Virus record (IMG/VR): IMGVR_UViG_3300023184_000136
Span: 1 to 59,633 of that record
Source of the DNA: a virus
Taxonomy: Duplodnaviria; Caudoviricetes
DNA length: 59,633 nucleotides
Direction: 5' to 3' (one strand)
Under the pieces are notes generated by a model. That model ran no database searches, was not told where the DNA came from, and was given only the letters and a program-made list of their open reading frames with translations. How positions within the stretch are numbered: position 1 is the first letter of the stretch; every line of letters begins with the position of its first letter. A program made the translations under genes and the position numbers. Below, one piece after another: positions 17,089-57,266 of this stretch.

Positions 17089-18270
17089 ATGAAAGAATTG
17101 ATTAGACATATATTGTACAACCATATTAACGAACAAAGAGGAGGAGGTAATAAATTAGATACTCAAAAATTCATTGAAAGGGCAAAAGAAATTCATGGAA
17201 ATAAATTTGATTATTCTAAAGTAAATTATGAGGGAATGAGAATTCCTGTTGAAATCATTTGTCCAATACATGGTAAAACAATCCAAACACCTTTGGACCA
17301 TTTAAGAGGCAGTGGATGTAGTAAATGTGGTAATGAATTAAAAAAATATATTAGACTGAAACCTGTTGAGGAGTTTTTGAAACAAGCAAAGGAAGTTCAT
17401 GGGGACAAATATGATTATTCTAAAGTTGATTATAAAAATACAGAAACTAAAGTTAAAATAATATGTCCGATACATGGAGAATTTTTACAATCACCACACA
17501 GTCATTTGGGTGGTAAGGGATGTCCTAAATGTTCAGGTAAAAATCAAACAGAGGACGATTTTATTAGAAAGGCTCAAGAAGTTCATGGAAATAAGTATGA
17601 TTATTCACAATTGAATTTCAAAAATATGTCATCTCCTGTAACAATTATCTGCCCAATTCATGGTAAATTTACTCAAAATGTTGGCCATCACTTAAATGGT
17701 CATGGATGTTTTGAATGTGGAAACGAAAAGAAAATAGAAAACAGAAGAATGTCCATTGATGATTTTGTTAAACAATCACAGGAAATTCATGGGGACAAAT
17801 ATGACTATTCAAAAACTGAAAATGTTAAATTAAACAAAGATTTAACTACAATTATATGTCCAGTACATGGGGAATTTTTACAATCTAGAAATTCACATTT
17901 AAGAGGTAGAGGATGCCCACTATGTAGAGAATCAAAAGGTGAAAAGTTAATAAATAATTTATTAAAACAAAATAGTGTAAATTTTAAGAGACAATATAGA
18001 TTTGATGATTGTACAAATAAGTTTGAAAAATTTTGTGTGAAATTACCATTTGATTTCTATTTACCCGATTTAAATGTTGCAATTGAGTATGACGGAGTCC
18101 AACATTTTGTTCCATCATTTGGCCCCCGTTCATTTGAAATTACTCAAAGAAACGATAAATTTAAAAACAATTATTGTCGTAAAAAAAATATTAAACTAAT
18201 AAGAATACCTTATACTTGGGATGCTGAAAAAGTCAAAACTCAATTAATTAAAAAATTAGGAATTAAATAG
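17089..18270 (+). CDS. putative homing endonuclease: four DUF723-like Zn repeats + C-terminal PD-(D/E)XK/Vsr-like nuclease
   Basis: 4x F..xA.E.HG.KYDYSK...IICP.HG.F.Q....HL.G.GC..C; C-terminal SKGE, LPFDFYLP, IEYDGVQHF. Confidence 0.8.
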   Translation: MKELIRHILYNHINEQRGGGNKLDTQKFIERAKEIHGNKFDYSKVNYEGMRIPVEIICPIHGKTIQTPLDHLRGSGCSKCGNELKKYIRLKPVEEFLKQAKEVHGDKYDYSKVDYKNTETKVKIICPIHGEFLQSPHSHLGGKGCPKCSGKNQTEDDFIRKAQEVHGNKYDYSQLNFKNMSSPVTIICPIHGKFTQNVGHHLNGHGCFECGNEKKIENRRMSIDDFVKQSQEIHGDKYDYSKTENVKLNKDLTTIICPVHGEFLQSRNSHLRGRGCPLCRESKGEKLINNLLKQNSVNFKRQYRFDDCTNKFEKFCVKLPFDFYLPDLNVAIEYDGVQHFVPSFGPRSFEITQRNDKFKNNYCRKKNIKLIRIPYTWDAEKVKTQLIKKLGIK

Positions 18271-18313
18271 ACCCCACCCTGTGTGGGGTTTTTTATTCTA
18301 TATGGTATTTATT
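18270..18313 (+). repeat. terminator + TATTTAT promoter junction, copy 2
   Basis: GACCCCAC-cctgt-GTGGGGTTTTTT, then TATTTATT at 18306. Confidence 0.7.
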
Positions 18314-18317
18314 GTAT

Positions 18318-18767
18318 ATGAAATTCATTATAAAAGAATCACAATATCAAAGGTTATTATTAGAGAGTAACCATATGAATTTTTATGATAATTTTCCTAC
18401 TATATTGGAAGAACTATTACAAGTTCCAGAATTTAGGGAGGATTTAAAAGAACATTCATATAATAAAAATGGTTATGTTAATTGGTGGAAGAGAGCGAAG
18501 GAAGATATGCAATTTTTAATTCGTGACAAATACTGTGGGTTATTTAAACAATTGGCTAGAAAGTATAAATTTAAATTAGATGTGGATGGGTATGGCGAAA
18601 AATATTTATGTATGACGTATGGAGGGATGTTTGGAGAAGCATTTTTTCACCAACTAAGGGGAAATAGATATGTTGGTGATGATGCACCAATAGATGATGG
18701 TCCCTATGAATATGAAGGACCCCCTTGGGTTTCTGAGTTTTTTATGAAAACATTTTACGGTAAATAA
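18318..18767 (+). CDS. hypothetical protein with N-terminal IKESQ...LLES peptide
   Basis: ORF 18312..18767; ATG 18318 preferred. Confidence 0.7.
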   Translation: MKFIIKESQYQRLLLESNHMNFYDNFPTILEELLQVPEFREDLKEHSYNKNGYVNWWKRAKEDMQFLIRDKYCGLFKQLARKYKFKLDVDGYGEKYLCMTYGGMFGEAFFHQLRGNRYVGDDAPIDDGPYEYEGPPWVSEFFMKTFYGK

Positions 18768-18773
18768 AATTAT

Positions 18774-18799
18774 GACCCCACCCACCAGTGGGGTTTTTT
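18774..18799 (+). terminator. terminator, copy 3 of the ACCCCAC/GTGGGGT family
   Basis: GACCCCAC-ccacca-GTGGGGTTTTTT. Confidence 0.75.
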
Positions 18800-18865
18800 A
18801 TTTTTATCTAGCTTGATATTGACTAGATAAATTATTAATTGTATATTTTATAAAAAGTAAAGTAT

Positions 18866-19270: not shown

Positions 19271-19324
19271 TAACAAGTAAGTTGGTTTTATAAAAATTTT
19301 TATTTACATTTCTAAAAAAGAAAT

Positions 19325-19873: not shown

Positions 19874-19881
19874 TTATTAAT

Positions 19882-23041: not shown

Positions 23042-23839
23042 ATGAGAGAAAAAGCAGTAATACCAATTAACCAAGACGAGATTGCAAGTTATTTAAAAGA
23101 CATTCGAAAGTTAACTGTAATGACGGTTGAAAGAGAACGTGAACTTGCAGATAGAATGTTATCGGGAAACATTACCGATGAAGAAAAGGCGGAGATAAAG
23201 AAGGAGATACTTGAAGGTAACCTTCGTTTCGTTATCACCGTGAGTAAACAATATCAAAACCAAGGGTTGGACTTCCCTGATTTGATTGCCGAAGGAAACT
23301 ATGGTTTGTTGAAAGCCATCGAGAACTTTGATTGGTCCAAGAAATTAAGATTTATATCTTATGCCGTTTGGTGGGTTCGTCAATCCATCCTGCAATCTCT
23401 TAATGAGAATGCAAGAACCATTCGTCTTCCCGTGAATGTGGTACAAGAGTTACAGAAAGCTAAGAAAGAGTTAGATAGAGAGGGTGTTGAATTACCTGAT
23501 AAGTTTGTTAACCTACCTTATACTGTTAACTTGGATTCACCTTTAAATGAAGATGGAGACACTTTGATGGACGTATTGAATAATCCTAACGCTGAGTGGG
23601 CTGATTCCAACTTGACTACTGAACAGACTTTGAAAGATAAGTTATTGGGTATGTTGGATGTATTGGATGAGAGAGAAAGAATTATCGTGGAGGATTATTT
23701 TGGACTATCTGGCTCAACAAGAACCTTGGAAGATATAGGTAATGACTTCGACTTAACGAAGGAAAGGGTACGACAGATTAAGGAAAAAGCTCTCAGAAAA
23801 CTGAGAAATGAGACGGGTTCTCTGTTCGATTATATGTAA
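23042..23839 (+). CDS. rpoD: RNA polymerase sigma70 factor (Bacteroidetes RpoD-like)
   Basis: NLRFVITVSKQYQNQG, DLIAEGN, RFISYAVWWVRQSI, region 4 LTKERVRQIKEKAL. Confidence 0.93.
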   Translation: MREKAVIPINQDEIASYLKDIRKLTVMTVERERELADRMLSGNITDEEKAEIKKEILEGNLRFVITVSKQYQNQGLDFPDLIAEGNYGLLKAIENFDWSKKLRFISYAVWWVRQSILQSLNENARTIRLPVNVVQELQKAKKELDREGVELPDKFVNLPYTVNLDSPLNEDGDTLMDVLNNPNAEWADSNLTTEQTLKDKLLGMLDVLDERERIIVEDYFGLSGSTRTLEDIGNDFDLTKERVRQIKEKALRKLRNETGSLFDYM

Positions 23840-24908: not shown

Positions 24909-25506
24909 TATAATAAAATATGGAAATTTTAAATCGGTAGGTAAACAAAAAAAGAAGAGACAAATAATCTTATGTCATACGTCAAGGGAGGTTGAGGAAT
25001 ACTTAGCCTCCCTTAAATTTAGGTATAATGGAAAGTACGATAAGATACCTAACTATATTGTAACAACAGAAGGTAAAGTCATTCAACTACTTGACGATAT
25101 ATCTTATTCAAATTATTTCACTGAGCAAAACATTAACAGGAACTCTGTTGTTGTTTGTTTAGAAAATTTGGGATGGTTGGAAAAGAAACCACTAACCAAC
25201 TATTATATTAACTGGAAAGGGAGTATTTATAATAAACAGGTTTACGAAAAAAAGTGGAGAGATTTCTTTTTCTGGCAACCTTACACAACAAGTCAAACGG
25301 AAACAACAGGTGAATTGTGTAACCAAATAATTGAATCTCTTAACTTGGAAAGAAAGTTCATAGGACATAATACCAAGGTTGAAGGTGTTAGTAGATTTGG
25401 AGGTATCGTATCCAAAAGTAATTTTGATACTGCATTCACTGACTTGAACCCATCTTTCAATTTCGAAACTTTTACAAAATTTATAGAACATGAGCAACTT
25501 GCATAA
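24901..25506 (+). CDS. N-acetylmuramoyl-L-alanine amidase (Amidase_2-like endolysin)
   Basis: IILCHT, NYIV...G.VIQ, N.NSVVVCLE, IGH, DLNPSF. Confidence 0.72.
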   Translation: MLDIIKYGNFKSVGKQKKKRQIILCHTSREVEEYLASLKFRYNGKYDKIPNYIVTTEGKVIQLLDDISYSNYFTEQNINRNSVVVCLENLGWLEKKPLTNYYINWKGSIYNKQVYEKKWRDFFFWQPYTTSQTETTGELCNQIIESLNLERKFIGHNTKVEGVSRFGGIVSKSNFDTAFTDLNPSFNFETFTKFIEHEQLA

Positions 25507-26092
25507 TGAAAGATACGATGAGATTAAATCTCTTCTAAAGAAATCAAGAATGTTAATGGAGCAAACAACAGATGAAGCTCCACCCAACATTGCCGCAGAT
25601 ATCGAACAAAAAATAGACCAAGACAATCAAGAGTACGAGACTGCAAATGATGTTGAAACAGACAACGACAATGAAGGTTCTAATGAACAACCTACAGCCA
25701 AAGATAAAGTACAAAAGTACAGAATCTCTGGTGGTATCTTAGCTCTTCACGGAAAAAGCAAAACTGATACTGACATCACTACTGATGATAAATTAGCCTT
25801 CCAAGAAACAATGGATGAATTTGTTAATGAGGTTTCTGACCTTGTTGACTTCAACACGTTAAATGTGTATCCAAATAATGTTGATTGGTCGGGTAAAATC
25901 ATTGATTCAGATTTAGATTTTACTTTCACAATCGGAGAAAATAGTGGAATCTATGTTGATGGAGAAATGTTAAAGGTTGACGAAAGCTTCTTACAATTAT
26001 TAAATAAACTTCAACAATACTATCAAAAATTCAAATCCAAGTGGTCAAGAATTTTAGCTAGTAGGAAAAAAACAAGAGAAACAAATGATTAA
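25490..26092 (+). CDS. hypothetical acidic protein (possible head protein)
   Basis: 200-aa ORF; N-terminal ...SRMLMEQ. Confidence 0.7.
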   Translation: MSNLHNERYDEIKSLLKKSRMLMEQTTDEAPPNIAADIEQKIDQDNQEYETANDVETDNDNEGSNEQPTAKDKVQKYRISGGILALHGKSKTDTDITTDDKLAFQETMDEFVNEVSDLVDFNTLNVYPNNVDWSGKIIDSDLDFTFTIGENSGIYVDGEMLKVDESFLQLLNKLQQYYQKFKSKWSRILASRKKTRETND

Positions 26093-27663: not shown

Positions 27664-29424
27664 ATGAACAACTTTGAAAATAATATTGACAAAATGGTCT
27701 CAAAAATTCTTTCTGAGGAAATTGAGAAGAAATCTAAACAAATTTCTGAACAACTTGAAGAAGAATTGAGTACTGGTCAAAAAAAAATAGCTAAACAAGC
27801 TGAGCCAAAAGATAAAATTACAGGTGCGGATTTTAAGAAATTAAGAGATGCAAAGAAACATAAAGAAGAAGTTGAAGAATTCTTTTTCTCTGATGACGAA
27901 GAAGATGAATCAACTTCAGGTGATTACGAAGGAGACGAAGATGCAGAAGATGAAGCTGAAAAATTATCGGCTCAAGAACCTACGTATGTAGGTAAAGGTC
28001 TACGTAAACCAAAAATGATTGGCTCATTTGATGATGAACATGGTTGGTTTGACGAACATGACAGACAAACACATCCTGATGATTTAGAAGATTATGACGA
28101 AGAGGAGTTTCATGATGTAGATTCATTACTTGCAAAACACGGTAGAAAACAACCTTGGTTTGGACCTAACGACGGAGAAAGATTTTTTAAAAGATATCAA
28201 GATAAATTTGGTGGTAAACCATTTAGAGTTAGACTTGCAAAAGGTTTAGAAGAAGACGCTGAAACTGATGAAGGAAATGAATTTTCAGGTGCTTTAGACA
28301 ATGCTAGAAAACATCATGAAAAAAGTTTTGAAGTTGGCGGTCACAAATATCCTGTTAAAGAAGCGAAGGGTAAAAAATGTCCTAAATGTGGAATGGTTGA
28401 TTGTAAATGTAATCACAAAAAAGAAACTAAAGAATCTGAGAAAAAGTGGATTCAAAAAACAGATATGAAAAAAGGTGCATTACATAAAAAGTTAAATGTT
28501 CCTGAAGACAAGAAAATCCCAAAAACTTTATTAAACAAATTAAAAAAAGAATTAATGGCTAAAGGTGAAGGAGACAAGAAATTATCTGCGGCCGATTCAA
28601 AATTATTGAAACAAGTTAATTTGGCGTTAACTCTTAAAAGTGTAAAAGAAAATAGAAACGTTCTTTCTTTGACTGAGAATGAATTAATTGATATGATTGA
28701 GAGTTTAGTTTTAGAACAAAAAGTTAAAGACATTGCAGAAAAAGATAACATCAGTAAGAAAGAAGCAACAGGTTTAAAGAAAACTGAAAAAGTTTTAGGA
28801 AAGAATAAATCAGAGGGAGACGCATACTTCAAAGAATTGGCTAAAAAAATGACTGATTACTTAAAAGATGGTACTAAAGCAAAATATGAAATGAATCCTG
28901 AAAAATTCCCTGAAAGTAACTATCAAATGGATAAAGATGCTAAGGTTATGAAATACAATCCATCTGAGGCGGTTGAAGAATATATTGATGCTTTCTCTTA
29001 TCCGGGAATGACAAATTTAGTATATGATGAAATCAAACCTGATGATAAAAGAATTGATAAGCAATTAAAAGGAGATTCAACATTTGGTAATGCTGTTACT
29101 GATAAAGAAGGAAAAGCGTTAGGTAATGTAGTCCCAAGTAAAGTTGGTGAAAAATTCAAGAAAAACTATGATGAAAATTTATATGGTGCTGAGCAAATGA
29201 AAGCGTCTTATAAGAGACAACCACAACCTGTTGAGGTTGAGGGTAATGGTCAAACTAAAGGTTCTTTAAAATCTAAAAAAGGAGCTGACAGTCAAAGTTC
29301 AATTGCAAAGGCAAGTAAAATACTTAACACGTTAGAATCTACTGAAAACAAAGCAGAAAAACTTGTTAACGAAGATATGGAAAAAATGAAAAATTTGATT
29401 GATTATAATAGAAAAACTCAATAA
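27664..29424 (+). CDS. highly charged putative prohead core/internal protein
   Basis: E/K/D-rich with many xxE sites and internal LTENELIDMIESLVLEQ; TATTTATA at 27643. Confidence 0.6.
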   Translation: MNNFENNIDKMVSKILSEEIEKKSKQISEQLEEELSTGQKKIAKQAEPKDKITGADFKKLRDAKKHKEEVEEFFFSDDEEDESTSGDYEGDEDAEDEAEKLSAQEPTYVGKGLRKPKMIGSFDDEHGWFDEHDRQTHPDDLEDYDEEEFHDVDSLLAKHGRKQPWFGPNDGERFFKRYQDKFGGKPFRVRLAKGLEEDAETDEGNEFSGALDNARKHHEKSFEVGGHKYPVKEAKGKKCPKCGMVDCKCNHKKETKESEKKWIQKTDMKKGALHKKLNVPEDKKIPKTLLNKLKKELMAKGEGDKKLSAADSKLLKQVNLALTLKSVKENRNVLSLTENELIDMIESLVLEQKVKDIAEKDNISKKEATGLKKTEKVLGKNKSEGDAYFKELAKKMTDYLKDGTKAKYEMNPEKFPESNYQMDKDAKVMKYNPSEAVEEYIDAFSYPGMTNLVYDEIKPDDKRIDKQLKGDSTFGNAVTDKEGKALGNVVPSKVGEKFKKNYDENLYGAEQMKASYKRQPQPVEVEGNGQTKGSLKSKKGADSQSSIAKASKILNTLESTENKAEKLVNEDMEKMKNLIDYNRKTQ

Positions 29425-30018: not shown

Positions 30019-30201
30019 ATGGAAACTTTAGAGCAAATTAAAGAATTAACAGAACTTCTTTCAGTTGATTCAACAAAATTCTTCAAGGGAAATAAAAGTG
30101 CGGGTACAAGAGCAAGAAAGTCAGCACAAGAATTGAAGGCTTTACTACAAAAGTTAAGAGGAGAAATCCTTGAACACAAAAAGACAGAAGATAATGCATA
30201 A
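30019..30201 (+). CDS. histone H1-like (Hc1-family) nucleoid protein
   Basis: KFFKGNKSAGTRARKSAQELK, typical of Bacteroidetes Hc1-like proteins. Confidence 0.8.
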   Translation: METLEQIKELTELLSVDSTKFFKGNKSAGTRARKSAQELKALLQKLRGEILEHKKTEDNA

Positions 30202-30964: not shown

Positions 30965-31161
30965 AGAAACTAGCATTAATTGCTGAGTCAGTACAAACTT
31001 TGTTCAGTGGTAAAGGTACTATTATATTTGAGCTACCTAAGGGAGAATATTCAAGTGTGATTAATCACTTTAGAGAAATTGATAGAAACCACAAACAATT
31101 TTCAATAGACATCTCAGGAACTGAGTTCCATTTTATTTTAATGGAGGAGAGTAAGTCGTAA
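30928..31161 (+). CDS. hypothetical protein
   Basis: 77-aa ORF. Confidence 0.6.
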   Translation: MAEDKNTNPGELEKLALIAESVQTLFSGKGTIIFELPKGEYSSVINHFREIDRNHKQFSIDISGTEFHFILMEESKS

Positions 31162-31780
31162 ACTTTCTGTAAAGGACTTTCTTATCATATCCTTTGGATT
31201 CTAACAAACTATACATATATTTTCTTTGAGGGGTTGAGTAATCTTTGATAAAAAGACAATCACCCCTTTTTATTTTATGGAAGTGATTAGATAAACAATC
31301 TATAAATCTGGAAGATTCGATTTCATTTTTACACGAGAACAAATTAACAACATCATCGTTCTGAACAACAATCTTATTATTAAGAACAGACACCATCTTC
31401 AACCCATCAGATTTCAAATACTTCTTTATAAACTCTTGAGTGAATATTTTTTTATTGATTTGAATATCAAATAAAGATTCTTCTTTTTTAAATTGAGTTA
31501 TTTTAAACAATGTCATACCTTCTTCATCGAGTTTAACCTTTTTACTTCGACCCATTTCATCGGTCATATAAACTGGAACAAGTTGCCTTGAGCTCAACTC
31601 AATAATACCAATCTCATATTGAGACAGTTGTCCATTTTCAACTACCACATCAAAGATAACATCATTAGACTCCGCCAATTTTTTTTCATAAAACTGAGTT
31701 GCCTTCTTTAAAGTTACAAACTTCTTTATTATCTTTTTCTTTAGTTTATTCTTAAACAATACTACAAAGTAGTTTACCAT
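31133..31780 (-). CDS. hypothetical protein
   Basis: ATG 31780 (MVNYFVVLFKN) avoids overlap with dnaJ. Confidence 0.7.
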   Translation of the reverse strand: MVNYFVVLFKNKLKKKIIKKFVTLKKATQFYEKKLAESNDVIFDVVVENGQLSQYEIGIIELSSRQLVPVYMTDEMGRSKKVKLDEEGMTLFKITQFKKEESLFDIQINKKIFTQEFIKKYLKSDGLKMVSVLNNKIVVQNDDVVNLFSCKNEIESSRFIDCLSNHFHKIKRGDCLFIKDYSTPQRKYMYSLLESKGYDKKVLYRKFTTYSPPLK

Positions 31781-31782
31781 AT

Positions 31783-32848: not shown

Positions 32849-33071
32849 ATTTATAAGTATGATTAGTGAACAAATTATTAAAAGAGTCCTTTATCAATTT
32901 CTTGATGAAAAGGAATCAGGTAAATTTAAGAAACCTCGCAAGTATAGTCAATCTTATTGTAAATCTACACCTTGTAATAAGATGGGTTTCACACAGAAAG
33001 CCTCTTGTAGACCATACAAAAATTGTTATAAGTAAATTTGCTTTTTTAATTTTTTTTATTATACTTCTAAT

Positions 33072-33911: not shown

Positions 33912-33954
33912 TTATTTTTGTATTCACAATATATTTATAATTAAATCAAAAGAG

Positions 33955-44093: not shown

Positions 44094-46215
44094 AGATATA
44101 ATAATAACCCCAGCGTCGGGTAAAATAGACTTTTATGATTCTGCATCCACAGTTACAACATGGGTGATAGAAACAGGTACGCTTAAATTTAAAAGAGGCG
44201 CAACTACGTATCTTTCTATGGATAATACTTATCCAAACTTCAGAGTGACTTCTGCAGATTTAAGATTAATTACATCACTTACAAACAACTCAGGAAACTT
44301 GATAGATTCAACGGGTTGGTTAGGTACAAGATATACTCAAGGTGCTCAAGGTGCTCAAGGAGGACAAGGTGCTCAGGGAGCTCAAGGTGGAACTGGAGGA
44401 CAAGGAGCACAAGGTGCTCAAGGTTCTACAGGTGCTCAAGGCTCTACAGGTGCCCAAGGAGGACAAGGAGCACAAGGAGCTCAAGGAGCAACAGGAACGG
44501 CCGGAGCTCAAGGTTCACAAGGAGGACAAGGTGCTCAAGGTGCTCAAGGTTCAACAGGAGCCCAAGGTTCACAAGGAGCTCAAGGAGGACAAGGAGCACA
44601 AGGTGCTCAAGGGGCGACAGGAACGGCCGGAGCTCAAGGTTCACAAGGAGGACAAGGTGCTCAAGGAGCCCAAGGTTCGACAGGTGCTCAAGGAGCCCAA
44701 GGTGCTCAAGGAGGACAAGGCGCTCAAGGAGCTAAGGGAGGTCAGGGAGCCACAGGAGCTCAAGGTTCACAAGGAGGTCAAGGAGCTCAAGGAGCACAAG
44801 GTGGTGGTGGAGCCACAGGAGCCCAAGGTGCTCAAGGAGGTCAAGGAGCTCAAGGAGCGCAAGGTGGTGGTGGAGCCACAGGAGCCCAAGGTGCTCAAGG
44901 TGGACAAGGAGCTCAAGGAGCTCAAGGAACTAAAGGAGGTCAAGGAGCTCAAGGTTCACAAGGTGGACAAGGAGCTCAAGGAGCACAAGGTGGTGGTGGA
45001 GCCACAGGAGCCCAAGGTGCTCAAGGAGGACAAGGTGCTCAGGGAGCTCAGGGTGGAACTGGAGGACAAGGAGCTCAAGGTTCACAAGGAGGTCAAGGTT
45101 CACAAGGAGGAGCTGGAGGCGCTGGTGCTCAAGGTTCACAAGGAGGAACAGGAGCCCAAGGTGCTCAAGGTGGACAAGGAGCTCAAGGAGCTCAAGGAGC
45201 TCAAGGTTCACAAGGAGGTCAAGGTTCACAAGGAGGAGCTGGAGGTGCTGGTGCTCAAGGTTCACAAGGAGGAACAGGAGGACAAGGTTCTCAAGGTGCT
45301 CAAGGACCTAAGGGTGTTCAAGGAGCTCAAGGTTCACAAGGAGGTCAGGGAGCTCAAGGAGGAGCTGGAGGAGCCGGAGCTCAAGGTTCACAAGGAGGAA
45401 CAGGAGGCCAAGGAGCTCAAGGTGCTCAAGGTTCCCAAGGAGGTCAAGGAGCTCAAGGAGCGACTGCTGCAACCGGTGCTCAAGGTGCTCAAGGAGCTTC
45501 ACCAACAGGACCAACAGGACCAGGAGGTGCTCAAGGTTTCCAAGGAGGACCAGGAGGGCAAGGAGCTCAAGGGTCTCAAGGACCAACAGGACCAGGTGGA
45601 GGACAAGGTGCTCAAGGAGCTCAAGGACCAACAGGACCAGGAGGTGCAACAGGAAGTCAAGGTGCTCAAGGACCAGTAGGACCGGGGGGTGCAACAGGAA
45701 GTCAAGGTGCTCAAGGACCAGTAGGACCAGGTGGAGGTCAAGGTGCTCAAGGAGCTCAAGGACCAGGAGGACCGCAAGGACCAGGAGGTAATCAAGGAGC
45801 TCAAGGACTTCAAGGTGGTGCAGGTATTCAAGGAGCTCAAGGAGCCAAAGGACCTGTCGGAGACCAAGGACCAACAGGACCACCTTCGGATATAAGATTT
45901 AAAAAGAATATTAGAAATATAGAGACACCACTTACAAAATTATTAAAAATAAGAGGAGTTGAGTTTATTTGGAAAAGACCAAATGATGATGGTGATAATA
46001 CGGTTGACATAGGATTTATTGCGCAAGAAGTTGCGGAGATATTCCCTGAATTAGTTTATAGTGGTAATAACACAACGGATTTGAAAAAAGTTAAGTATCA
46101 CGAAATAGTTTCAATTTGTCTTGAGGCGATAAAAGAACAATTTGAAGAATTAGATGAAAGTGAGACTAGATTAGAATATTTTGAAAATAGAATAAAAGAA
46201 AAGGGGTTGATTTAA
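44086..46215 (+). CDS. collagen-like tail fibre 3 with peptidase S74 chaperone
   Basis: GAQ/GGQ collagen; SDIRFK...GFIAQEV.EIFPELV. Confidence 0.85.
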
Positions 46216-46227
46216 ACCCCTTCTTTA
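46195..46227. terminator. bidirectional terminator between convergent genes
   Basis: AAGGGGTT-gattta-AACCCCTT flanked by A and T runs. Confidence 0.55.
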
Positions 46228-47057
46228 TTTAATAACATTTCTATTTCGTCTTTTGTGTTGTATAACATTGTTAAGAATCTTGGCCACATTTTAGGATTAT
46301 GTTTCTTAACTAATTCGATGTAAGTTAAATAATAAGGTTCATCTTTCTTATCAATGAGTTCTGTGGTTTGTGGATAGTCAACTGAGATATCTCCAAGAAT
46401 TTTAGATATTTTATTATCTCCGATGTTTTCATCATTTAACCTATCTAAGATATCTAATGACAATTTGGAAAGCTTCTCATTTTTTCCAAAATAGTTTACA
46501 ATATTATTTAAAGACTTAAGGAGGAATTTTTTATTTTCTACATTTTTTAATCTATTAAATCTTCTTGAGAATTCACCAACCAAAGCTTCTAAGAATTCAT
46601 TTGTGATTGCTCTAAATTCAATTGGATGACCCCAATAATCTTTATCTGACTTTTCATTATATCTTGATTGATATTTGATATTCATTTTTGTAGACTGTGA
46701 TGGGTCTGTGGCGTGTAACATTTCGTGATAGATGGTTAAGAAAAGGTTTTTCTTGGAACCATACTTTTTTGGATTCAATTGAATTACCAAATCTAACGGG
46801 TCTCTTGAACCTTTTGGTCTTGTATCTAATTCACCGAAATGAGGATATCTTGGATTGATATAAATTTGAACTAAAGCATCTGAACCATCTGAAGTTTTAA
46901 ATTGTAGTTGGTCTACTTTTGTTTTCTTATCGTATTGTTTGTTTCTATTAGACCACAACTTATTAGTTAACTCTATCAACCTTGTATAGGTTTCAGGGTC
47001 AAATCTAAATCTCTTTTGTTCTGAGATAACTGTTTCTAATATATTAATAAACTTCAT
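46212..47057 (-). CDS. HExxH zincin-like metallopeptidase
   Basis: TIYHEMLHATD...YWGHPIEFRA. Confidence 0.65.
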   Translation of the reverse strand: MKFINILETVISEQKRFRFDPETYTRLIELTNKLWSNRNKQYDKKTKVDQLQFKTSDGSDALVQIYINPRYPHFGELDTRPKGSRDPLDLVIQLNPKKYGSKKNLFLTIYHEMLHATDPSQSTKMNIKYQSRYNEKSDKDYWGHPIEFRAITNEFLEALVGEFSRRFNRLKNVENKKFLLKSLNNIVNYFGKNEKLSKLSLDILDRLNDENIGDNKISKILGDISVDYPQTTELIDKKDEPYYLTYIELVKKHNPKMWPRFLTMLYNTKDEIEMLLNKEGV

Positions 47058-47845
47058 TAGTCTAAATCAGTACTCCAATCAATTTGGAGTTTTTTTGGTT
47101 TAATTTTGTCTGCGTATTGGTCAAAGACATTTTTAAAAGGAATTTGAGCTTGTTTGATATCTTTAATCCTTCTCATGTCATCACCAATACCTGTAGATAA
47201 ATATGATTGAATCTCATCATCTACAACTTTCTCAGCATATCCCATACCAGTTATCTTCTTGGCAACTTGATTTCTTACCGATTGATTCATGTTCTCGATG
47301 TTAGAGAATTGTTTGTTTCTGTAAGCTGGAGTTGAGAACCATAGACCGTGAGCAACCTCATGGAATATTAAAGATGGGTCATCACCTGTAGATTGGTCGA
47401 TACCAATTAAGTAATAGTTATCACCACCAACAATGGCTCTTACGGTATCAACAATGCTAAACATAATTAAATCGTAGAAGTTAAGGTCAGGAATCATAGA
47501 CATACAAGATTCAATTGAATCACAAGGTATGTTATAACCAGCCCAATCTTCGTGGTATGTGAAGATGTCGTTCTTTGTTTTCTCTTTGTAGAATTTTGTG
47601 TAGTCTTGCCACTTGAATCCTTTACCTCTGAAACTATCTGAATCAGATTCATAGAACTCTTGGTAACGCATAAAAACTCTAGCTCTTAACTTATCGTTCT
47701 TAATAACAACAGCAAATATCTTCGGGTACATCTCAAACAACTCAATCTGTGATAAAATTGATTTGATGTTTGGTGGTGGAGTTTTACGTGGAGTAAAACC
47801 TCTTTGTTCCCTTAATACTTTTAATATAAGTTTATCTTTACTCAT
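47057..47845 (-). CDS. HExxH zincin-like metallopeptidase
   Basis: LIFHEVAHGLW...DDEIQSY. Confidence 0.65.
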   Translation of the reverse strand: MSKDKLILKVLREQRGFTPRKTPPPNIKSILSQIELFEMYPKIFAVVIKNDKLRARVFMRYQEFYESDSDSFRGKGFKWQDYTKFYKEKTKNDIFTYHEDWAGYNIPCDSIESCMSMIPDLNFYDLIMFSIVDTVRAIVGGDNYYLIGIDQSTGDDPSLIFHEVAHGLWFSTPAYRNKQFSNIENMNQSVRNQVAKKITGMGYAEKVVDDEIQSYLSTGIGDDMRRIKDIKQAQIPFKNVFDQYADKIKPKKLQIDWSTDLD

Positions 47846-48843
47846 TAAATGTAATCTTTAAAATACTCATTAATATTTTTATCTACTTTACGACTATCAG
47901 GGTAATCAGGTGGGTTTACAGATAAACAATCTCTGTCTTCCGCCATTATAGCTATGAAACTACCGTGGTATTCTAAAGTCCCTGAATTACCATAACCTTT
48001 ATTATTGTTTAGGTAATCATTTATATCTGTCTCAAATGCAGTCAAAGGTAACTTATTATATTGAATTTCCGTATTCTTTTTATATGGGTGGGGTTTTGTT
48101 ATCCATTCACCTGGACCTATTACATAATCTTGTAATTCGTACCATATTGAACGATAAATATCATCCTCATACGCTGAGTTATAGGATGAACTATGTATCG
48201 AGTATAATTCACTTTTTAATTCATCTAATGGGCCGTTAAGTAGTTCATTCATACTCTCTTTATCATCAACTATTCGCTTAACATTTTCCATATTAACTTC
48301 GACATAGTCAGGATGACCTTGTTCTGATGCAATTAATTGTAGTTCGTCACTCAATCCTGTAACTTCTTGACCCTCTAAAATATTAACAATATATTCTTGT
48401 AATCTTTTATCATTTTCAGGTGTAAGTTCTTCAATAACGTCGCTATAAACATCATCGGTTGTGTTATAGTAAGGTTCCCAATCGCTTTCACCATTCAAAA
48501 CAGATTCGATAGTATCTCTATCAGGTCCATTTCTATCGTTTTTACAAAACAATCTTGCCAAATCACCTCTATCATTAAGTTCCAAATATGCTTTCCCATC
48601 TTCAATTACTACATCATTCAACAAAGTTTGAATCCATTTATAATAATTTTCTCTATCGTTTTCATACAACCAAAGAAGATATTCGTTTTGCCAATATCCA
48701 CCATTATCAGCATTGTTGGGGTCAATGTCTCCCATACGGCCTCGTTTCTTCAACATATTGAAGAATGTTTGGTAGTCATTGAAGTATTTCTCAACCTCTA
48801 AGTCGTTGTTATTAAATTTTTCTATAATGTCATCTATGTCCAT
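47845..48843 (-). CDS. highly acidic hypothetical protein
   Basis: D/E/N-rich; ATG 48843 lies 4 nt after TATTTATA on the minus strand (48848-48855). Confidence 0.75.
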   Translation of the reverse strand: MDIDDIIEKFNNNDLEVEKYFNDYQTFFNMLKKRGRMGDIDPNNADNGGYWQNEYLLWLYENDRENYYKWIQTLLNDVVIEDGKAYLELNDRGDLARLFCKNDRNGPDRDTIESVLNGESDWEPYYNTTDDVYSDVIEELTPENDKRLQEYIVNILEGQEVTGLSDELQLIASEQGHPDYVEVNMENVKRIVDDKESMNELLNGPLDELKSELYSIHSSSYNSAYEDDIYRSIWYELQDYVIGPGEWITKPHPYKKNTEIQYNKLPLTAFETDINDYLNNNKGYGNSGTLEYHGSFIAIMAEDRDCLSVNPPDYPDSRKVDKNINEYFKDYI

Positions 48844-48856
48844 TACATATAAATAC

Positions 48857-48884
48857 AAAAAAAGGGACATTTTATTGTCCCTCT
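48857..48884 (-). terminator. intrinsic terminator
   Basis: AGGGACA/TGTCCCT stem with a T-run on the minus strand. Confidence 0.6.
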
Positions 48885-48908: not shown

Positions 48909-49088
48909 TTATTTCACCCAACCGTTAGTGTTAGTCTTGTTAACGTTGTAGTACTTCTCAATCGTTTTCTTGATTGCTGACTTAACATCTTCGTTAACAT
49001 TTGGCTTCGCTGGTGGTGGAGCTTGTTGAACATTAGACTGTGCTGGTGGTTGACTTTCATTACCTTTATTTTTGCATCCGCATCCCAT
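48909..49088 (-). CDS. 59-aa MGCGCK protein (absent from ORF track)
   Basis: MGCGCKNKGNESQPPAQ...NGWVK; TATTTATT upstream (49117-49124) and a terminator downstream. Confidence 0.65.
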   Translation of the reverse strand: MGCGCKNKGNESQPPAQSNVQQAPPPAKPNVNEDVKSAIKKTIEKYYNVNKTNTNGWVK

Positions 49089-49175
49089 GGTATTAATTTT
49101 TTCTTTGGTTTATCATAATAAATATTATCTTTAGTGAAATATAAACTTAAAAGAATATTTATCAAATAAAACAGA

Positions 49176-50927
49176 ATGGATTTTTTAAAATTGATTAGTG
49201 AAGGTAGAATAGAACAGTTTGAAACAAAGTACGGTAAAAAGTTTTCACCTGAACAACTAAAAAGAATGAGTAAACTTATTCCACCAAAGTATTTGGATTG
49301 GGTGGGTAAAAATATCGATTCAATTAACTTTGATGAGAACTTTGATAAATTAGCTGACGCAGTTAATAAATTCGTTTCAATTGGCTCTAACTTACCTGTA
49401 ACAGATTTATATCAATATCCAAATACTACAAAATTATTTCAAGCGTTAGCTGACTACGAAAACAAAACTAGAAGAACTGTAAGAAAAGTTGAAGGTGGTA
49501 ATGTTGTTTATGATGACTCACGTTTTTTTGTTGTTAATCCTTTAACTCATGAATCATCTTGTTATTATGGAAAAGGTACAAAGTGGTGTACTGCGGCGGA
49601 ATCGAATAGCCATTTCAATCGGTACAATGAAGACGGTAAATTATTTTACGTTATTGATAAAAGTCTCCCAACCAACAACCCTGAATATAAAATAGCTATT
49701 CTTAAAAAGTTTGATGGTCTTGAATCATATTGGAACGCCCTTGATGAAAGTATAACTCATGGGTGGATTTTTGGTACAGATGAATTAAAAAAAGTTAACG
49801 AAGGTATTACCAACTATATGGAGGCCGAATATGCTGACCAATTAAAAATATTTAGAGATAAAGAGGCGGCTAAAAAAGAAAGAGATAGATTGGAAAAATT
49901 AAGACTACAAAACATATTAAACGAACAAAGAGCTGAAGCACAAGAGAGAAGAGAAAACGGAGAATGGGATTTAGGTCCCGACTGTCCTGAAGAAGGATTG
50001 AAAGCACACGCCCTTTTAGATTGGCTTGAAAGTAATGATAATGTTGAAGTTAAAACAAACGAAGATAGAATTGAGATTCAAAGATTAAAAGATGAGATTG
50101 AAAGATTAGAAAGTGAGTACGATAATAGTGAAGATGTTAGAACAGATTTGTTAGATGAAAAAGAAACTTTAGAAGATGAACTAGAGACATTAGAAAGTAG
50201 TATTGATGTTTATAATATTATTCCAACAGGTAGACATTATGATATGACTGAATTTGAGGTAATTGATTCAGATGTAGAAGGACGTAGATATGCCGTTGGT
50301 ACACAGGGCGAAGTTGATACAAGTGCTTATGATTGTGTTGATAATCTAATTGATGATATTGGGTATAATGGATTTAATCAAGGATTTGCCCGAGGATATA
50401 TTGATGAAGAAGCGGTTGCCTCTTATGCTGAAGAGGTTTATGATGATGATGTTAGAGACAACCCAGAGTCTTATTTTGATGATAGCGAAAGACAACTTTC
50501 AAGCGAACAAGATGAAAAGATAGAAATATTAGATAGTAGAATAGAACAGACTGAGGCTTTAATTGAGAGACTTGAAAATGAAATGACTGGTGATGATTCA
50601 GATATTGAGGAACAAATAGATGAACTTAATGATAGAATTACCGAATACAAAGATGAAATTGAAGAAATTGAAGCAGACCCCGAGGGTGAGTTTCCTGATG
50701 ACTTGATTAACGATAAAGTTAGTGACTTGGTTTCAGATGTAAGACGTGACCCAGAAGAGTTTATGGAAACATTTGGATTGAATTGGGAAGACTATATTGA
50801 CAAAGATGATTTCATTCAAGGAGTTATAGATTCTGATGGATATGGTTCTTGTTTAAGTAGTTATGATGGAAATTCGGATGAGGTATATGTCCAAGGACAA
50901 CTATTTTACGTAATCAGAATTGATTAA
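49176..50927 (+). CDS. WCT-motif (PcfJ-related) domain protein with acidic coiled-coil C-terminus
   Basis: SCYYGKGTKWCTAA...FNRY..DGKLF is paralogous to 33955..35301; TATTTATC at 49156. Confidence 0.7.
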   Translation: MDFLKLISEGRIEQFETKYGKKFSPEQLKRMSKLIPPKYLDWVGKNIDSINFDENFDKLADAVNKFVSIGSNLPVTDLYQYPNTTKLFQALADYENKTRRTVRKVEGGNVVYDDSRFFVVNPLTHESSCYYGKGTKWCTAAESNSHFNRYNEDGKLFYVIDKSLPTNNPEYKIAILKKFDGLESYWNALDESITHGWIFGTDELKKVNEGITNYMEAEYADQLKIFRDKEAAKKERDRLEKLRLQNILNEQRAEAQERRENGEWDLGPDCPEEGLKAHALLDWLESNDNVEVKTNEDRIEIQRLKDEIERLESEYDNSEDVRTDLLDEKETLEDELETLESSIDVYNIIPTGRHYDMTEFEVIDSDVEGRRYAVGTQGEVDTSAYDCVDNLIDDIGYNGFNQGFARGYIDEEAVASYAEEVYDDDVRDNPESYFDDSERQLSSEQDEKIEILDSRIEQTEALIERLENEMTGDDSDIEEQIDELNDRITEYKDEIEEIEADPEGEFPDDLINDKVSDLVSDVRRDPEEFMETFGLNWEDYIDKDDFIQGVIDSDGYGSCLSSYDGNSDEVYVQGQLFYVIRID

Positions 50928-54120: not shown

Positions 54121-54146
54121 AAAGGGTCGTTATGACCCTTTTTTTT
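54121..54146 (+). terminator. intrinsic terminator
   Basis: AAAGGGTC-gttat-GACCCTTTTTTTT. Confidence 0.8.
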
Positions 54147-54181
54147 ATTTACAGGATATTTATAAGGATATTATAAATAAA

Positions 54182-55141
54182 ATGGCTGACATCGTTATAA
54201 ACAAAAAACAATTAAATTTAATCAAGGAACAACAAGTACTTAACGAGTCGTTGTTAAGCATCGAGAATGTATTAATGGCTGTTGGATTCGTACCTGTTAT
54301 TGGAGAATTGGCTGACATTGCTTTAATATGCTATTATCTTTATAAAGGTGAAAAATTATACGCGGCGTTAATGTTGATTGCTCTTATACCTACAGTTGGT
54401 GATTTTATTGTTAAACCAATTATAAAATTATTTCAAGGTAGTAGAAAAGGAGCGGTTGCGTTAAAAACTGGCGGTGTAAAATTAACTGAGTATTTAGCCA
54501 AAAATCCTGAAGCTGCTGCTAAATTTGCTAAATTAGGAAAATATGTAAAAACTCCTGCAGTTGAAAAAACAGTACAGGGGATTACAAAGGTGAACTCAAG
54601 CTTAGGTTCAAAATTAAAATCAGGATTGAGTGAAATAAGTGGAGGAAGTGTTATTGCCGGAACCAAGGCAGCTGCAAAAGAAGTTGCTGCGGGAGGTAAA
54701 TTTGGTAAAGGACTTAAGGACTATTTTCAAGGAGAAAGATTAACTAATTACTTTGTTAAACATGGTGTTGCACCTGAAACTGGAATTAAAAGATGGTGGT
54801 TGAACGTACAAGCTGGTGGAGATAGAAGAGCTGCGTTCAGAAAATTTATTAGTACTAATAATTTACTTGCTTACTTTGGAATTCCTTCTTTGACAACATT
54901 TGAAAGGAAGATGTCTGAAGATGCTGAATTTAGAAAAAAAGTTGCTGATGACCCTAAAACAAGTGACTACATTGCCAAGAATTATAATGATGACTCTAAA
55001 AAATCGTCAGAATCACAAGCATCTAACAACACGGCACAAACCACACAAACTACACCAAATAAAAACGATAACCCATTAGTAGGATTAATTGGAGGTTTGT
55101 TTAATAATCAATTAGGTAAAGCCGCCTTATCAACAATTTAA
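54182..55141 (+). CDS. putative virion/ejected membrane protein with pre-toxin TG-like hairpin
   Basis: AVGFVPVIGELADIA...AALMLIALIPTVGD; TATTTATA at 54157. Confidence 0.55.
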   Translation: MADIVINKKQLNLIKEQQVLNESLLSIENVLMAVGFVPVIGELADIALICYYLYKGEKLYAALMLIALIPTVGDFIVKPIIKLFQGSRKGAVALKTGGVKLTEYLAKNPEAAAKFAKLGKYVKTPAVEKTVQGITKVNSSLGSKLKSGLSEISGGSVIAGTKAAAKEVAAGGKFGKGLKDYFQGERLTNYFVKHGVAPETGIKRWWLNVQAGGDRRAAFRKFISTNNLLAYFGIPSLTTFERKMSEDAEFRKKVADDPKTSDYIAKNYNDDSKKSSESQASNNTAQTTQTTPNKNDNPLVGLIGGLFNNQLGKAALSTI

Positions 55142-55151
55142 AATAAAAGAT

Positions 55152-55523
55152 ATGAAAGAAGAAATAACACTCAAACTTGTCCAAATACAATTACAGTTCA
55201 AATTTTTACATTGGCAAACATTTGGAGATGCTAAACATAAAGCTTATGGAGAAATTTATGAGGCTATGGGAGGTAATATAGATAAGTTAGTAGAGGCTAT
55301 GATGGGAAAATATGGAAGAGTCCAATTTGATTCAGAATTTTCTATTATGTTCCAAGACATCTCAGCATTAAGTGTTCAAAACTTTATGGATGGAATCACT
55401 GAATTCTTAGTGGGTATGACAGAACAATTAGACCCAAAATATGATAGTGACTTATTAAACATCAGAGATGAAATTTTGGGTGACATAAATCAAACAAAAT
55501 ACAGACTTACATTAAAATATTAA
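55152..55523 (+). CDS. ferritin/Dps-like protein (DUF5856-like)
   Basis: LHWQT...AKHKA.GE.YE.....D.LVEA.MG, DLLNIRDEIL. Confidence 0.7.
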   Translation: MKEEITLKLVQIQLQFKFLHWQTFGDAKHKAYGEIYEAMGGNIDKLVEAMMGKYGRVQFDSEFSIMFQDISALSVQNFMDGITEFLVGMTEQLDPKYDSDLLNIRDEILGDINQTKYRLTLKY

Positions 55524-55524
55524 T

Positions 55525-55869
55525 ATGGCAAAAAAAGTAATACGATTGACTGAGGCTGACTTAACAAATGTCATCAAGAGAGTAATCACAGAACAAAGTG
55601 AAGAAAGAAATATCACAAGGGCTATTCAAAAGTTTTTAAACAAAACAATGAAAGCAGGATTAAGTGAAGATGGTAGAACAGGACGTAATTCTGCAACAGA
55701 AGCAGCAATTTCAAAATACCAATCTAGAATTGGAGTATATCCTTCAGATGGTACGTGGGGTCCAAACACATGGGATAAGATGCCGGAACAAGATAGAAAA
55801 TTATTGAAGGACCTTATTGCTAAAGAGGGTGGACCCGTGGATACATTTTTAAATTGGTTAGGAGTTTAA
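55525..55869 (+). CDS. peptidoglycan-binding domain protein
   Basis: IQKFLN...DGRTGRNSATEAAISKYQ...DGTWGPNT. Confidence 0.75.
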   Translation: MAKKVIRLTEADLTNVIKRVITEQSEERNITRAIQKFLNKTMKAGLSEDGRTGRNSATEAAISKYQSRIGVYPSDGTWGPNTWDKMPEQDRKLLKDLIAKEGGPVDTFLNWLGV

Positions 55870-57266
55870 TGAAAAAAATAATATCAGAATCAGGATTAAG
55901 AGACATTTCAGCTTTAAGGAAAAGATATCCTAAAGCTGAAATTTATTTTCACCAAGACTTGGACGGTGTCACAACCGCTATTGCGATGAAGAAATATCTT
56001 GAAGATAATGGTATTAAGGTTGTTGGTTCTCACATAATTCAATACGGAGATAAAGAATTTGCCGTTAAAAAGAATGATGCTAAAGGAGACGTAATGCCGG
56101 TTTTAGTTGATTTTGCTCATGGTAAACCAATGTTCAAGATACATACGGACCACCATGATAGACAAGTAGGTGCTGATAAAGACACATCAAAGTCATTCAG
56201 ACAAGCTCGTTCAAATGTTGAAACAATATCTCAAATTGTTTCTCCAAAAGATTTATTTCCAAGTTCGGATGTCCTTTTAATTAATACTGTAGACTCTGCA
56301 GATTTTGCCCGTCAGAATATTACACCTGAAGATGTTGTAAATTACCTTTTTCGTTTTGATAAAGAATTACCACTTCAAAAAAACAAAATGTTATTAGGGT
56401 TTGTTATTAACAAATTAGTTTTAGCTTTCAAAAACAGACCAGGATTTTTGGAAGGATTGGTTATGGATAGTGAGCCTTCATTAATGTCAATTCTTACTAA
56501 CATAAAGAAATGGATGAAAGAAACTAATGCCGTTGGTACAGAAGAACTTCAACATAATGCCAAAGACTATATGAAATCAATGGAAGGGGTTCCAAAAGTT
56601 GAAGATAGTATTATATCTCAATACGGAGGAGGTTCAATGTTTAAACCAGGTTCATATGACCGTTATACCCCTTTTAAGAACAATCCTGACGCTGATTTTT
56701 TAATCATGTCTTGGCCAATGGGGTTAGTTCAAGCGTCTTGTAATCCATTTAAAAAGGACAGAGAATTGAAAGGAGTTAACTTAGGTGAGATAGCTCAAGA
56801 AGTTTTGGGAAGATGGGAGTCTAAACTTAAAGAAAAGATGATTCCTTTGTCTACAGTTAAATGGGTTAGTGAAACAAGCGTTGGACCTGAAAGTATTGGA
56901 TTTACATTTCAAGACTTTAATGCCATTTATGGTGGAAAGTTTGAGAACCTACCAAACGGAGAAAAAGCGCTTAATCATATTAAAGATATGATGGAGACAC
57001 CATTCAAAGACTTACCTGAGGAACATAGAGAAATGTTAGATAAGATTAAAGTAAGTGCGTGGGATATAATTCAAGCCAATTCAGGAGGTCACAAATGTAT
57101 TACAAACATCGGAGGTTTAAGTTATTTAGGGAGAGGTACAAGACCACCTCAAGGAACATATCGTTATGACTCAAACAAAGAAGACCATCCGTACGTTAAG
57201 TTCGTGAAGATGATTGCCCAAGAATTTGAAAATAAATTAAAAGAGAAGATTCAAGAATCAAAATAA
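55869..57266 (+). CDS. DHH-family phosphoesterase
   Basis: HQDLDG, VDFAH, HTDHH, VDSAD, C-terminal GGH. Confidence 0.75.
   Translation: MKKIISESGLRDISALRKRYPKAEIYFHQDLDGVTTAIAMKKYLEDNGIKVVGSHIIQYGDKEFAVKKNDAKGDVMPVLVDFAHGKPMFKIHTDHHDRQVGADKDTSKSFRQARSNVETISQIVSPKDLFPSSDVLLINTVDSADFARQNITPEDVVNYLFRFDKELPLQKNKMLLGFVINKLVLAFKNRPGFLEGLVMDSEPSLMSILTNIKKWMKETNAVGTEELQHNAKDYMKSMEGVPKVEDSIISQYGGGSMFKPGSYDRYTPFKNNPDADFLIMSWPMGLVQASCNPFKKDRELKGVNLGEIAQEVLGRWESKLKEKMIPLSTVKWVSETSVGPESIGFTFQDFNAIYGGKFENLPNGEKALNHIKDMMETPFKDLPEEHREMLDKIKVSAWDIIQANSGGHKCITNIGGLSYLGRGTRPPQGTYRYDSNKEDHPYVKFVKMIAQEFENKLKEKIQESK

Follow-up and report, generated by a model that had tools for sequence, protein, structure and literature searches.

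A conserved N-terminal tag on unrelated proteins of Bacteroidetes phages, a candidate capsid-targeting propeptide

The viral contig IMGVR_UViG_3300023184_000136 (Duplodnaviria; Caudoviricetes) was analysed over its whole length of 59,633 nucleotides, which is called the window here (59.6 kb; guanine-plus-cytosine (GC) content about 33%; CheckV completeness 20). A set of 74 genes was derived from 82 greedy open reading frames (ORFs): eight were dropped (12-209, 31133-31864 on the minus strand, 32866-33078, 48914-49165 on the minus strand, and four in the RNA region 58381-59440), and nine starts were shifted to the first ATG. Pfam and PHROG scans of the set found a primase, an exonuclease, SbcCD, a RuvC-like protein, three DNA methylases, a sigma factor, DnaJ, an Hc1 histone-like protein, three collagen-like tail fibres, and many family-less proteins. 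According to the initial annotation, eleven unrelated proteins of the window start with a short amphipathic peptide that ends in (I/L)-x-Glu and addresses them to the capsid. All eleven N-termini were found; the two given at 47057 and 47845 are the starts of the minus-strand genes 46212-47057 and 47057-47845. Genes and their products are named here by the leftmost coordinate. I found that a peptide tag exists, that it is N-terminal and under selection at the protein level, and that it is joined to unrelated cargo.

The window is about one fifth of a bS21-encoding Bacteroidetes phage of about 317 kb. It is syntenic with 241.8-299.3 kb of G001, a complete relative of 317 kb. Three more complete relatives, G002, G003, and G004, were used, the four being 309-321 kb in length; G003 (321 kb) was left out of profile training. 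In IMG/VR, 154 relatives of the 33955 protein were counted, their contigs being as long as 321 kb. A megablast search with the window in cultured phages gave no more than one match of 125 bases, and the closest capsid protein of a cultured phage, 44% identical over 40% of the protein, is that of Flavobacterium phage immuto. In G001, a bS21 gene (PF01165, 6e-10) lies at 107686-107871 on the plus strand, opposite to its neighbours, between the portal and protease genes. In the part of the report by Chen et al. that is drawn on here (10.1101/2021.10.11.463225), a bS21 gene within a T4-like head module is a hallmark of freshwater Bacteroidetes phages. Since the G001 bS21 gene is inside the head module, the window can be tied to the phages of Chen et al.; that part of their report does not mention an N-terminal tag.

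The long form of the tag was first recognised in the N-termini of G001. It reads M-x-K-I-I-R-L-T-E-S-D-L-x-R-L-V-K-R-V-x-K-E-Q and is bipartite, a strand-like M-x-K-I-I-R-L followed by T-E-S-D-L making the first part and x-R-L-V-K-R-V-x-K-E-Q the second. Shorter forms keep one half or a compressed version (for example, MKIIVTESQFNRVLSEQ), and the lengths range from 8 to 25 residues across the forms. A profile was built from the N-termini of the window and G001, and a score of at least 8 bits was counted as a match. It matched 20 of 478 N-termini, 6 of 1931 internal 45-residue tiles, and 1 of 4780 shuffled N-termini. In the independent genome G003, 25 of 404 N-termini matched as against 2 of 1651 internal tiles (P = 3e-16). 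The long form was also found in the other complete relatives, with 11 matches in G002 and 6 in G004. Another profile (A1), made of 18 long-form tags, was searched against 1.84 billion cluster representatives and matched 8562 of them at E <= 1e-3 and 434 at E <= 1e-10. In 147 of the 150 best matches, the first tag copy starts within 15 residues of the N-terminus. When the first 35 residues were removed, BLASTP matched only orthologs and three paralog pairs, so that the tag is indeed common to otherwise unrelated proteins. It was also correct that the replication genes lack the tag; the tag profile gives no score to any window protein with a replication, repair, or methylase annotation.

Could the tag be a chance or composition effect of AT-rich N-termini? 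The loose motif by which it was originally defined does not rise above chance. Of the 74 window proteins, 36 have [ILMV]xE within their first 30 residues (2.34 per 100 residues in N-termini against 1.70 elsewhere), and the loose (I/L)xE was rejected as a discriminator. One or two [ILMV]xEQ matches in the window are expected by chance, the DnaJ at 31783 being one such. The longer pattern h-h-x-E-Q (h, hydrophobic) behaves differently: the window has 6 in 2220 N-terminal residues and 2 in the other 16200, where 0.27 would be expected at the N-termini (Poisson P = 5e-7, a post hoc test), and G001 has 18 N-terminal and 19 elsewhere, a 6.7-fold excess. The control variants h-h-x-D-Q, h-h-x-Q-E, and h-h-x-E-E showed no N-terminal enrichment. 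These controls, together with the internal tiles, the shuffles, and the independent genome, make a chance origin extremely unlikely; chance is refuted for the core set, though it may still account for 17089 and the N-terminal piece of 27664.

The conservation of the long form is strict at two residues. E10 and E23 are invariant in 18 of the 18 long-form tags, which agrees with the claim that the tag ends in hydrophobic-x-Glu; position 8 is L or I, and position 21 is V, I, L, or M. The similarity stops abruptly after E-Q. In the best 150 metagenomic representatives, the residue after the final Glu is Q in 123 of 180 copies and otherwise S, D, N, G, or E. A ribbon-helix-helix reading of the strand and helix was dropped because the similarity ends after the first helix. 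Synonymous codons are free, with four Leu, four Thr, and four Ser codons at single positions. Thus, it is the peptide that is under selection, not the DNA or RNA.

The tagged genes cluster in a single island, about 45-55 kb long in each genome (177-221 kb in G001 and 183-241 kb in G003). Part of it is built of consecutive small tagged genes (for example, G001 196468-204832), and it is reminiscent of the variable internal-protein locus of T4. Tagged genes are no less conserved between G001 and G003 than others (homologs for 16 of 20 and 264 of 384, respectively; P = 0.33). Clustering in variable islands is what one would see if the tag were the conserved 5′ end of mobile gene cassettes, with a promoter and the first codons serving as a recombination site and the peptide having no common function. 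G001 lacks the segment with the genes 18318 and 17089, and many tagged genes follow a TATTTAT element, as such cassettes would. This explanation is nevertheless very unlikely, given that amino acids are kept while synonymous codons differ and that internal copies have neither promoter nor Met; nucleotide identity across the tags beyond the amino-acid requirement was looked for and not seen.

In no tagged protein does a Pfam or PHROG model extend over residues 1-25. Of the best 150 representatives, 97 were scanned with Pfam (mostly the shortest were left out); 92 have no family and none has a family over the tag. A word-based protein search with residues 1-40 of the 55525 protein found only 19 orthologs and told nothing of how widely the tag occurs, and the words LTESDL, RLTESD, LTESQL, and IITESQ had no match in the literature searched. 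The tags of the window and the associated TATTTAT elements are listed in Table 1.

Table 1. Tags, tag-like N-termini, and TATTTAT elements of the window. Scores are in bits of the tag profile.
Position	Strand	Feature	Gene or protein	Score or basis
55525-55596	+	long-form tag, residues 1-24 (MAKKVIRLTEADLTNVIKRVITEQ)	PG_binding_1 protein, 114 residues, 55525-55869	44.8 and 53.7
18318-18368	+	short-form tag, residues 1-17 (MKFIIKESQYQRLLLES)	protein of no assigned family, 149 residues, 18318-18767	29.0
33955-33996	+	tag-like N-terminus, residues 1-14 (MKFTSLLKSVILEQ)	protein with C-terminal leucine-rich repeats (LRR), 448 residues, 33955-35301	3.9
47016-47057	-	tag-like N-terminus (MKFINILETVISEQ)	HEMLH protein, 281 residues, 46212-47057	5.1
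47804-47845	-	tag-like N-terminus (MSKDKLILKVLREQ)	HEVAH protein, 262 residues, 47057-47845	6.2-7.3
25490-25564	+	tag-like N-terminus, residues 1-25 (...EIKSLLKKSRMLMEQ)	200 residues, acidic linker after Glu-Gln	2.5 (first profile only)
54182-54232	+	tag-like N-terminus (MADIVINKKQLNLIKEQ)	319 residues	2.2
49176-49205	+	short N-terminal h-x-E (MDFLKLISEG)	583 residues (phrog_17056)	no profile score
55869-55892	+	first tag half only (MKKIISES)	DHH/DHHA1-like protein, 465 residues	5.5
28663-28719	+	internal long-form-like tag (LSLTENELIDMIESLVLEQ), residues 334-352	586 residues, 27664-29424	G001/G003 ortholog alignment
27664-27720	+	N-terminal piece (...MVSKILSEE)	same protein	2.8
17089-17136	+	doubtful tag (MKELIRHILYNHINEQ)	HNH/DUF723 homing-type endonuclease, 393 residues	no profile score
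48849-48855	-	TATTTAT, late-promoter-like	heads leftward unit 48843 to 46212, including genes 46212 and 47057	
17076-17082		TATTTAT	before a gene of the claimed eleven	
18306-18312		TATTTAT	before 18318, 12 nucleotides from its ATG	
27643		TATTTAT	before a gene of the claimed eleven	
33932-33938		TATTTAT	before a gene of the claimed eleven	
49156-49162		TATTTAT	before a gene of the claimed eleven	
54157-54163		TATTTAT	before a gene of the claimed eleven	
3223		TATTTAT	before a structural gene	
6158		TATTTAT	before a structural gene	
39019		TATTTAT	before a structural gene	

The tags of 55525 and 18318 are firm. In 55525, E10 and E23 are invariant in 17 orthologs. An AlphaFold2 model gives residues 1-25 a predicted local distance difference test (pLDDT) score below 50, with a short helix at 10-20, ahead of a PG-binding domain at 26-100 (block means 76-87). 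PG_binding_1 is also found on the tagged proteins 187546 and 245449 of G001. Neither 18318 nor 17089 has a homolog in G001 or G003.

The products of 25490, 33955, 46212(-), 47057(-), 49176, 54182, and 55869 are probably tagged, as judged from a conserved Glu and a tag-like form, their profile scores being weak or absent. Orthologs in both G001 and G003 retain the Glu of 25490, 27664, 33955, 46212, 47057, 49176, and 55869; that of 54182 is retained in its G001 homolog. The orthologs read FLFEQ and LIFEQ for 25490, ISEQ (G001) and LSEA (G003) for 46212(-), IILEN and LILEN for 49176, and LINES and LITET for 55869. Those of 47057(-) vary in the length of the N-terminus and keep h-x-E-Q followed by RGFTP. 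The 54182 protein has long hydrophobic, membrane-like stretches at about residues 30-85 after the tag, and its G001 homolog reads ...KQLAVIQEN. In 33955, h-x-E is kept in 80 of 80 related loci, and F3, T4, L7, and E13 are invariant in 28 sequences. Its AlphaFold2 model has a low-confidence helix at residues 2-13 (pLDDT below 50 at 1-3 and 5-11) and a break at Q14-S15. A jumbo-phage protein, EST35_0205 of PA5oct, which is annotated as 'structural protein, ESI-MS/MS', aligns with residues 112-278 (30% identity, E = 3e-4), and matches to related phages reach 1e-5. The core of the 33955 protein is thus homologous to a virion protein detected by mass spectrometry. A domain is common to the 49176 and 33955 proteins.

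The remaining two proteins of the eleven differ from these. In 27664, the N-terminal piece is weaker than the internal copy, whose G001 counterpart scores 10.7 bits; the N-terminal half, 333 residues ahead of the internal tag, is very acidic. The tag of 17089 is unverified and the least supported among the eleven. Its protein is a confirmed endonuclease (phrog_559, 2e-83), and a phrog_681 match begins at residue 17, past the 16 tag residues.

The initial annotation saw the cargo as diverse effectors. The LRR (Foldseek fold match, E = 9e-5), PG_binding_1, and endonuclease labels held. The two proteases of 46212(-) and 47057(-) are HExxH proteins at the motif level only (Peptidase_M91 match, E = 0.024), and the DHH match of 55869 (E = 1.3e-3) is below the cut-off, at 19.4 bits against 28.1, with an Atlas DHHA1 lead of 0.92. 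Recognised cargo domains are few, namely PG_binding_1, LRR, a weak DHH/DHHA1, and HExxH motifs, and the label of an anti-host arsenal is a conjecture on thin annotation. Tagged proteins tend to be small and basic, with a median length of 148 residues and a median isoelectric point (pI) of 8.97 as compared with 180 and 6.0 for other proteins; a pI above 8.5 was found for 22 of 43 tagged and 248 of 839 other proteins (P = 0.004).

Is the tag then a cationic amphipathic helix that takes proteins to the membrane or envelope of the infected host? Its helix part alternates L/V/I with K/R, and the cargo includes peptidoglycan-binding domains and one protein with membrane-like hydrophobic stretches. 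The hydrophobic moment is, however, not significantly above that of shuffles, charges recur every few positions with no hydrophobic core of the signal-peptide kind, the cargo is mostly soluble-looking and basic, and the invariant acidic T-E-S-D and terminal E-Q would be unexpected in a membrane anchor. I consider this role improbable. A Sec or lipoprotein signal peptide was also sought by reading the tag sequences; no hydrophobic core of about 10-15 residues is present, and charged residues occur every 2-4 positions.

All four complete relatives encode a Peptidase_S77 protease of the T4 gp21 type (E about 1e-22), which was absent from the 14 control genomes; that of G001 matches PDB 5jbl (1.4e-12). 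The head module of G001 runs in the order TerL, Gp20 portal, two small genes with bS21 between them, S77 protease, scaffold candidate, and Gp23 capsid protein. The scaffold candidate is a very acidic protein of 537 residues in which ...KESLSEQ| precedes an acidic run, and h-x-E-[QSA] also occurs close to the N-terminus in other proteins of the head module. When compared with T4 (NC_000866), the capsid site ...GSFLTE65|A of gp23 aligns with ...ASFLINE60|A of G001, and MNEPQLLIE9| of gp21 corresponds to MKNLRILE8|A of the G001 protease. In the parts of two reports that are cited here (PMC9958956, PMC5694885), T4 gp23 is cut after a 65-residue propeptide and gp21 removes nine residues from itself. 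A T4-type head module with a gp21-family protease and (I/L)xE sites in the capsid protein and the protease is therefore present in this phage family. Since these sites are conserved in both proteins, a protease specificity able to cut the tag is plausibly conserved in the lineage. Some tagged genes lie in or beside the head module (98879 and 113594 in G001; 100272 and 102702 in G003).

I propose that the tag is a modular N-terminal propeptide of the kind of the T4 capsid-targeting sequence (CTS), a reading by analogy to which I would give a probability of about 0.55. A short strand and an amphipathic helix, or a truncated form of them, would dock the new protein onto the prohead scaffolding core. 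After closure of the shell, the gp21-type prohead protease would cut after one or both Glu residues (L-T-E|S and h-x-E|Q). The small fragments would exit. The mature protein would remain beside the DNA inside the head, from where it could be ejected into the Bacteroidetes host. Where a multi-domain protein has internal copies, these may be polyprotein cut sites. The AlphaFold2 models of 55525 and 33955 place the tag outside the fold, as an N-terminal helix of low confidence, which counts for this proposal. So do the size and pI of the cargo, the PA5oct homolog of 33955, and the occurrence of TATTTAT upstream of tagged genes of G001 as well as of head and tail genes. Docking, cleavage, packaging, and ejection of the tagged proteins are what I infer from these likenesses. 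The wider idea that the tag is a portable, sequence-readable address-and-release module, by which this widespread lineage of Bacteroidetes phages of roughly 300 kb loads 25-40 proteins per genome into the head, among them polyproteins cut at internal tags, is tentative and falls short of an even chance.

How similar is the tag to known systems? In T4, the CTS and other N-terminal propeptides removed by gp21 are found on IPII, IPIII, IPI, Alt, and gp24, as described in the cited parts of PMC9958956 and PMC5694885. The resemblance lies in a short N-terminal peptide on unrelated proteins (internal to the head in T4, predicted to be so here) and in its hydrophobic-x-Glu end. It extends to the S77 protease, to the head order of portal, small core genes, protease, scaffold, and capsid, and to the positional conservation of the capsid and protease cleavage sites. 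The A1 profile, however, has no match in the T4 genome at E <= 0.1. Unlike the CTS, the tag reaches 23 residues, is bipartite with two invariant Glu residues, occurs also inside multi-domain proteins, and is carried by about 25-40 genes per genome rather than by a handful. The kind of system is thus known from T4, and what is new here is the sequence, the length, the two invariant Glu residues, the copy number, and the internal copies. Encapsulin cargo-loading peptides are also short and portable and load diverse cargo into a shell of the HK97 fold; they are C-terminal and are not removed by a protease. Their sequences are unrelated to the tag, and the likeness is in function only, that of the tag being predicted.

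A second comparison is with the giant phages phiKZ, 201phi2-1, and SPN3US, in which many head proteins (inner-body and ejection proteins) are cut by a gp21 homolog on the C-terminal side of Glu. According to the cited part of PMC5694885, these propeptides have the motif A/S/G-x-E, often exceed 100 residues, have conserved N-termini on diverged paralogs, and may have multiple sites. Large phages, conserved N-termini, and several Glu sites are shared with the present case, in which the processing is predicted. One of their ejection proteins has a membrane helix after the propeptide, to which the 54182 protein may be compared (same part of PMC5694885). In contrast to phiKZ and SPN3US, the present tags span 8-25 residues and have I, L, V, or M two positions ahead of the Glu, and the lineage is not phiKZ-like; only the 27664 protein, with 333 residues before its internal tag, resembles a long giant-phage propeptide. 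Literature found for 'capsid targeting sequence' concerned, by title, T4, SPN3US, P1, or the cyclic-oligonucleotide-based anti-phage signalling system (CBASS), with none on Bacteroidetes phages. A search on jumbo-phage ejection proteins or propeptides together with Bacteroidetes returned only the SPN3US work.

Several points weigh against a capsid-targeting propeptide. The long form was found neither in T4 itself nor in five phages in which an S77 protease was identified (PA5oct, Mel-JY01, the huge phages LR745206 and LR756501, and Flavobacterium phage immuto); the same search found tags in G000, G002, and G004 as a positive control. Thus, whether a phage has the tag does not follow from its having the protease. 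A cleavage site would need far less length and conservation than the tag shows, and the helix of the tag is not significantly amphipathic, as 7% of shuffles reach the same hydrophobic moment. A load of 25-40 tagged genes per genome would mean many more packaged species than in T4, a homing-type endonuclease such as 17089 would be an odd cargo, and cleavage and packaging are presumed for every tagged member. Pfam and PHROG scans found no capsid, portal, or protease gene among the 74 genes of the window, and the G001 and G003 genes come from a simple ORF caller, so that some starts are wrong. The association with the TATTTAT element is modest: in G001, it is upstream of 9 of 19 strongly tagged and 78 of 373 untagged genes (P = 0.019), and genome-wide it is not over-represented, with 221 found as against about 304 expected from base composition.

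The first of these points would also fit a docking or assembly helix, perhaps never cleaved, whose hub is not the prohead core but, for example, part of the tail or baseplate, a DnaJ or Hsp20 chaperone, or a replication or assembly compartment. The conservation extends over 20 residues, well beyond a protease site, and the window encodes DnaJ and G001 Hsp20. Moreover, 52 of the best 150 of the 8562 representatives carry two or three copies; the extra ones lie between domains, often without Met, and some at the very C-terminus, as a repeated docking element might. These representatives, by their sequence layout, look like polyproteins or repeated docking modules. Against such a helix, both invariant Glu residues have a hydrophobic residue two positions before, as in the capsid and protease cleavage sites, the similarity ends exactly after E-Q, the window, G001, and G003 together have 22 N-terminal copies and 2 internal ones, and tagged genes occur in and beside the head modules. 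I regard this alternative as unlikely, if the most probable of the rivals considered. As it is lacking in T4 and in phages with the same protease family, the tag is lineage-specific, as a scaffold-docking element might be. The only weak match of the long form outside the family, at LR756508.1 152407-152478 (21.5 bits), lies about 4 kb from the S77 protease of that huge phage (156.5-158.1 kb).

If the propeptide role is true, the tag marks, from sequence alone, capsid-borne proteins that enter the host with the DNA in abundant uncultured freshwater phages. The tagged proteins are mostly without assigned function and would be prime candidates for early host take-over and counter-defence. The tag could then also serve to package foreign proteins in phages of Bacteroidetes, in the way that the T4 CTS is used in Escherichia coli. 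If the wider address-and-release idea holds as well, the tagged proteins would be by far the largest known set of packaged and ejected proteins defined by a tag, and the 'ejectome' of thousands of uncultured phages would become readable from sequence, with 8562 protein clusters already tagged. Whatever its role, a 23-residue module in 8562 clusters with no Pfam or PHROG model is a testable family.

The TATTTAT element was claimed to head the units of nearly all tagged genes. An association was found, since 6 of the 11 claimed genes have it within 60 nucleotides upstream as compared with 8 of the 63 others (P = 0.004), and the genes 46212 and 47057 belong to the unit that the copy at 48849-48855 heads. 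In G001, its spacing to the start codon is 11-12 nucleotides for 37 genes and 21-23 nucleotides for 25 genes, and only this position, at a fixed distance to start codons, is non-random. It precedes the scaffold candidate, the protease, a head-module gene of 231 residues, large tail or baseplate genes, and a tail-fibre gene of G001. Thus, it behaves as a late-promoter-like element. The gene annotated at 47845-48870 on the minus strand probably starts at Met 48843 (MDIDDIIEKF; compare MEYSWDDIVEKF in G001), with TATTTAT 12 nucleotides before that Met; the longer ORF would read through the element. The sigma-70-family factor at 23042-23839 is a candidate reader of TATTTAT. An Hc1 histone-like gene (30019-30201) and a full DnaJ gene (31783-32709) were also noted.

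Other parts of the window deserve mention. The segment 16386-21472 has no DNA match in G001 and resembles a mobile insertion; it carries the HNH/DUF723 endonuclease, the strongly tagged 18318, an N6/N4 methylase, and two signal-peptide-like small proteins. The three tail-fibre genes (39046-46215, plus strand) have collagen repeats and Peptidase_S74 chaperone ends; their GC content is 44-51% as compared with about 33% elsewhere, and the stretch is highly repetitive against the matching region of G001. At the right end of the window, a GOLLD RNA (RF02032, 210 bits, E = 6e-58) at 59339-59633 on the plus strand is cut by the contig end. It is adjoined by a tRNA-Met at 58459-58531, and this stretch, 80-91% identical to G001, is the best-conserved DNA of the window.

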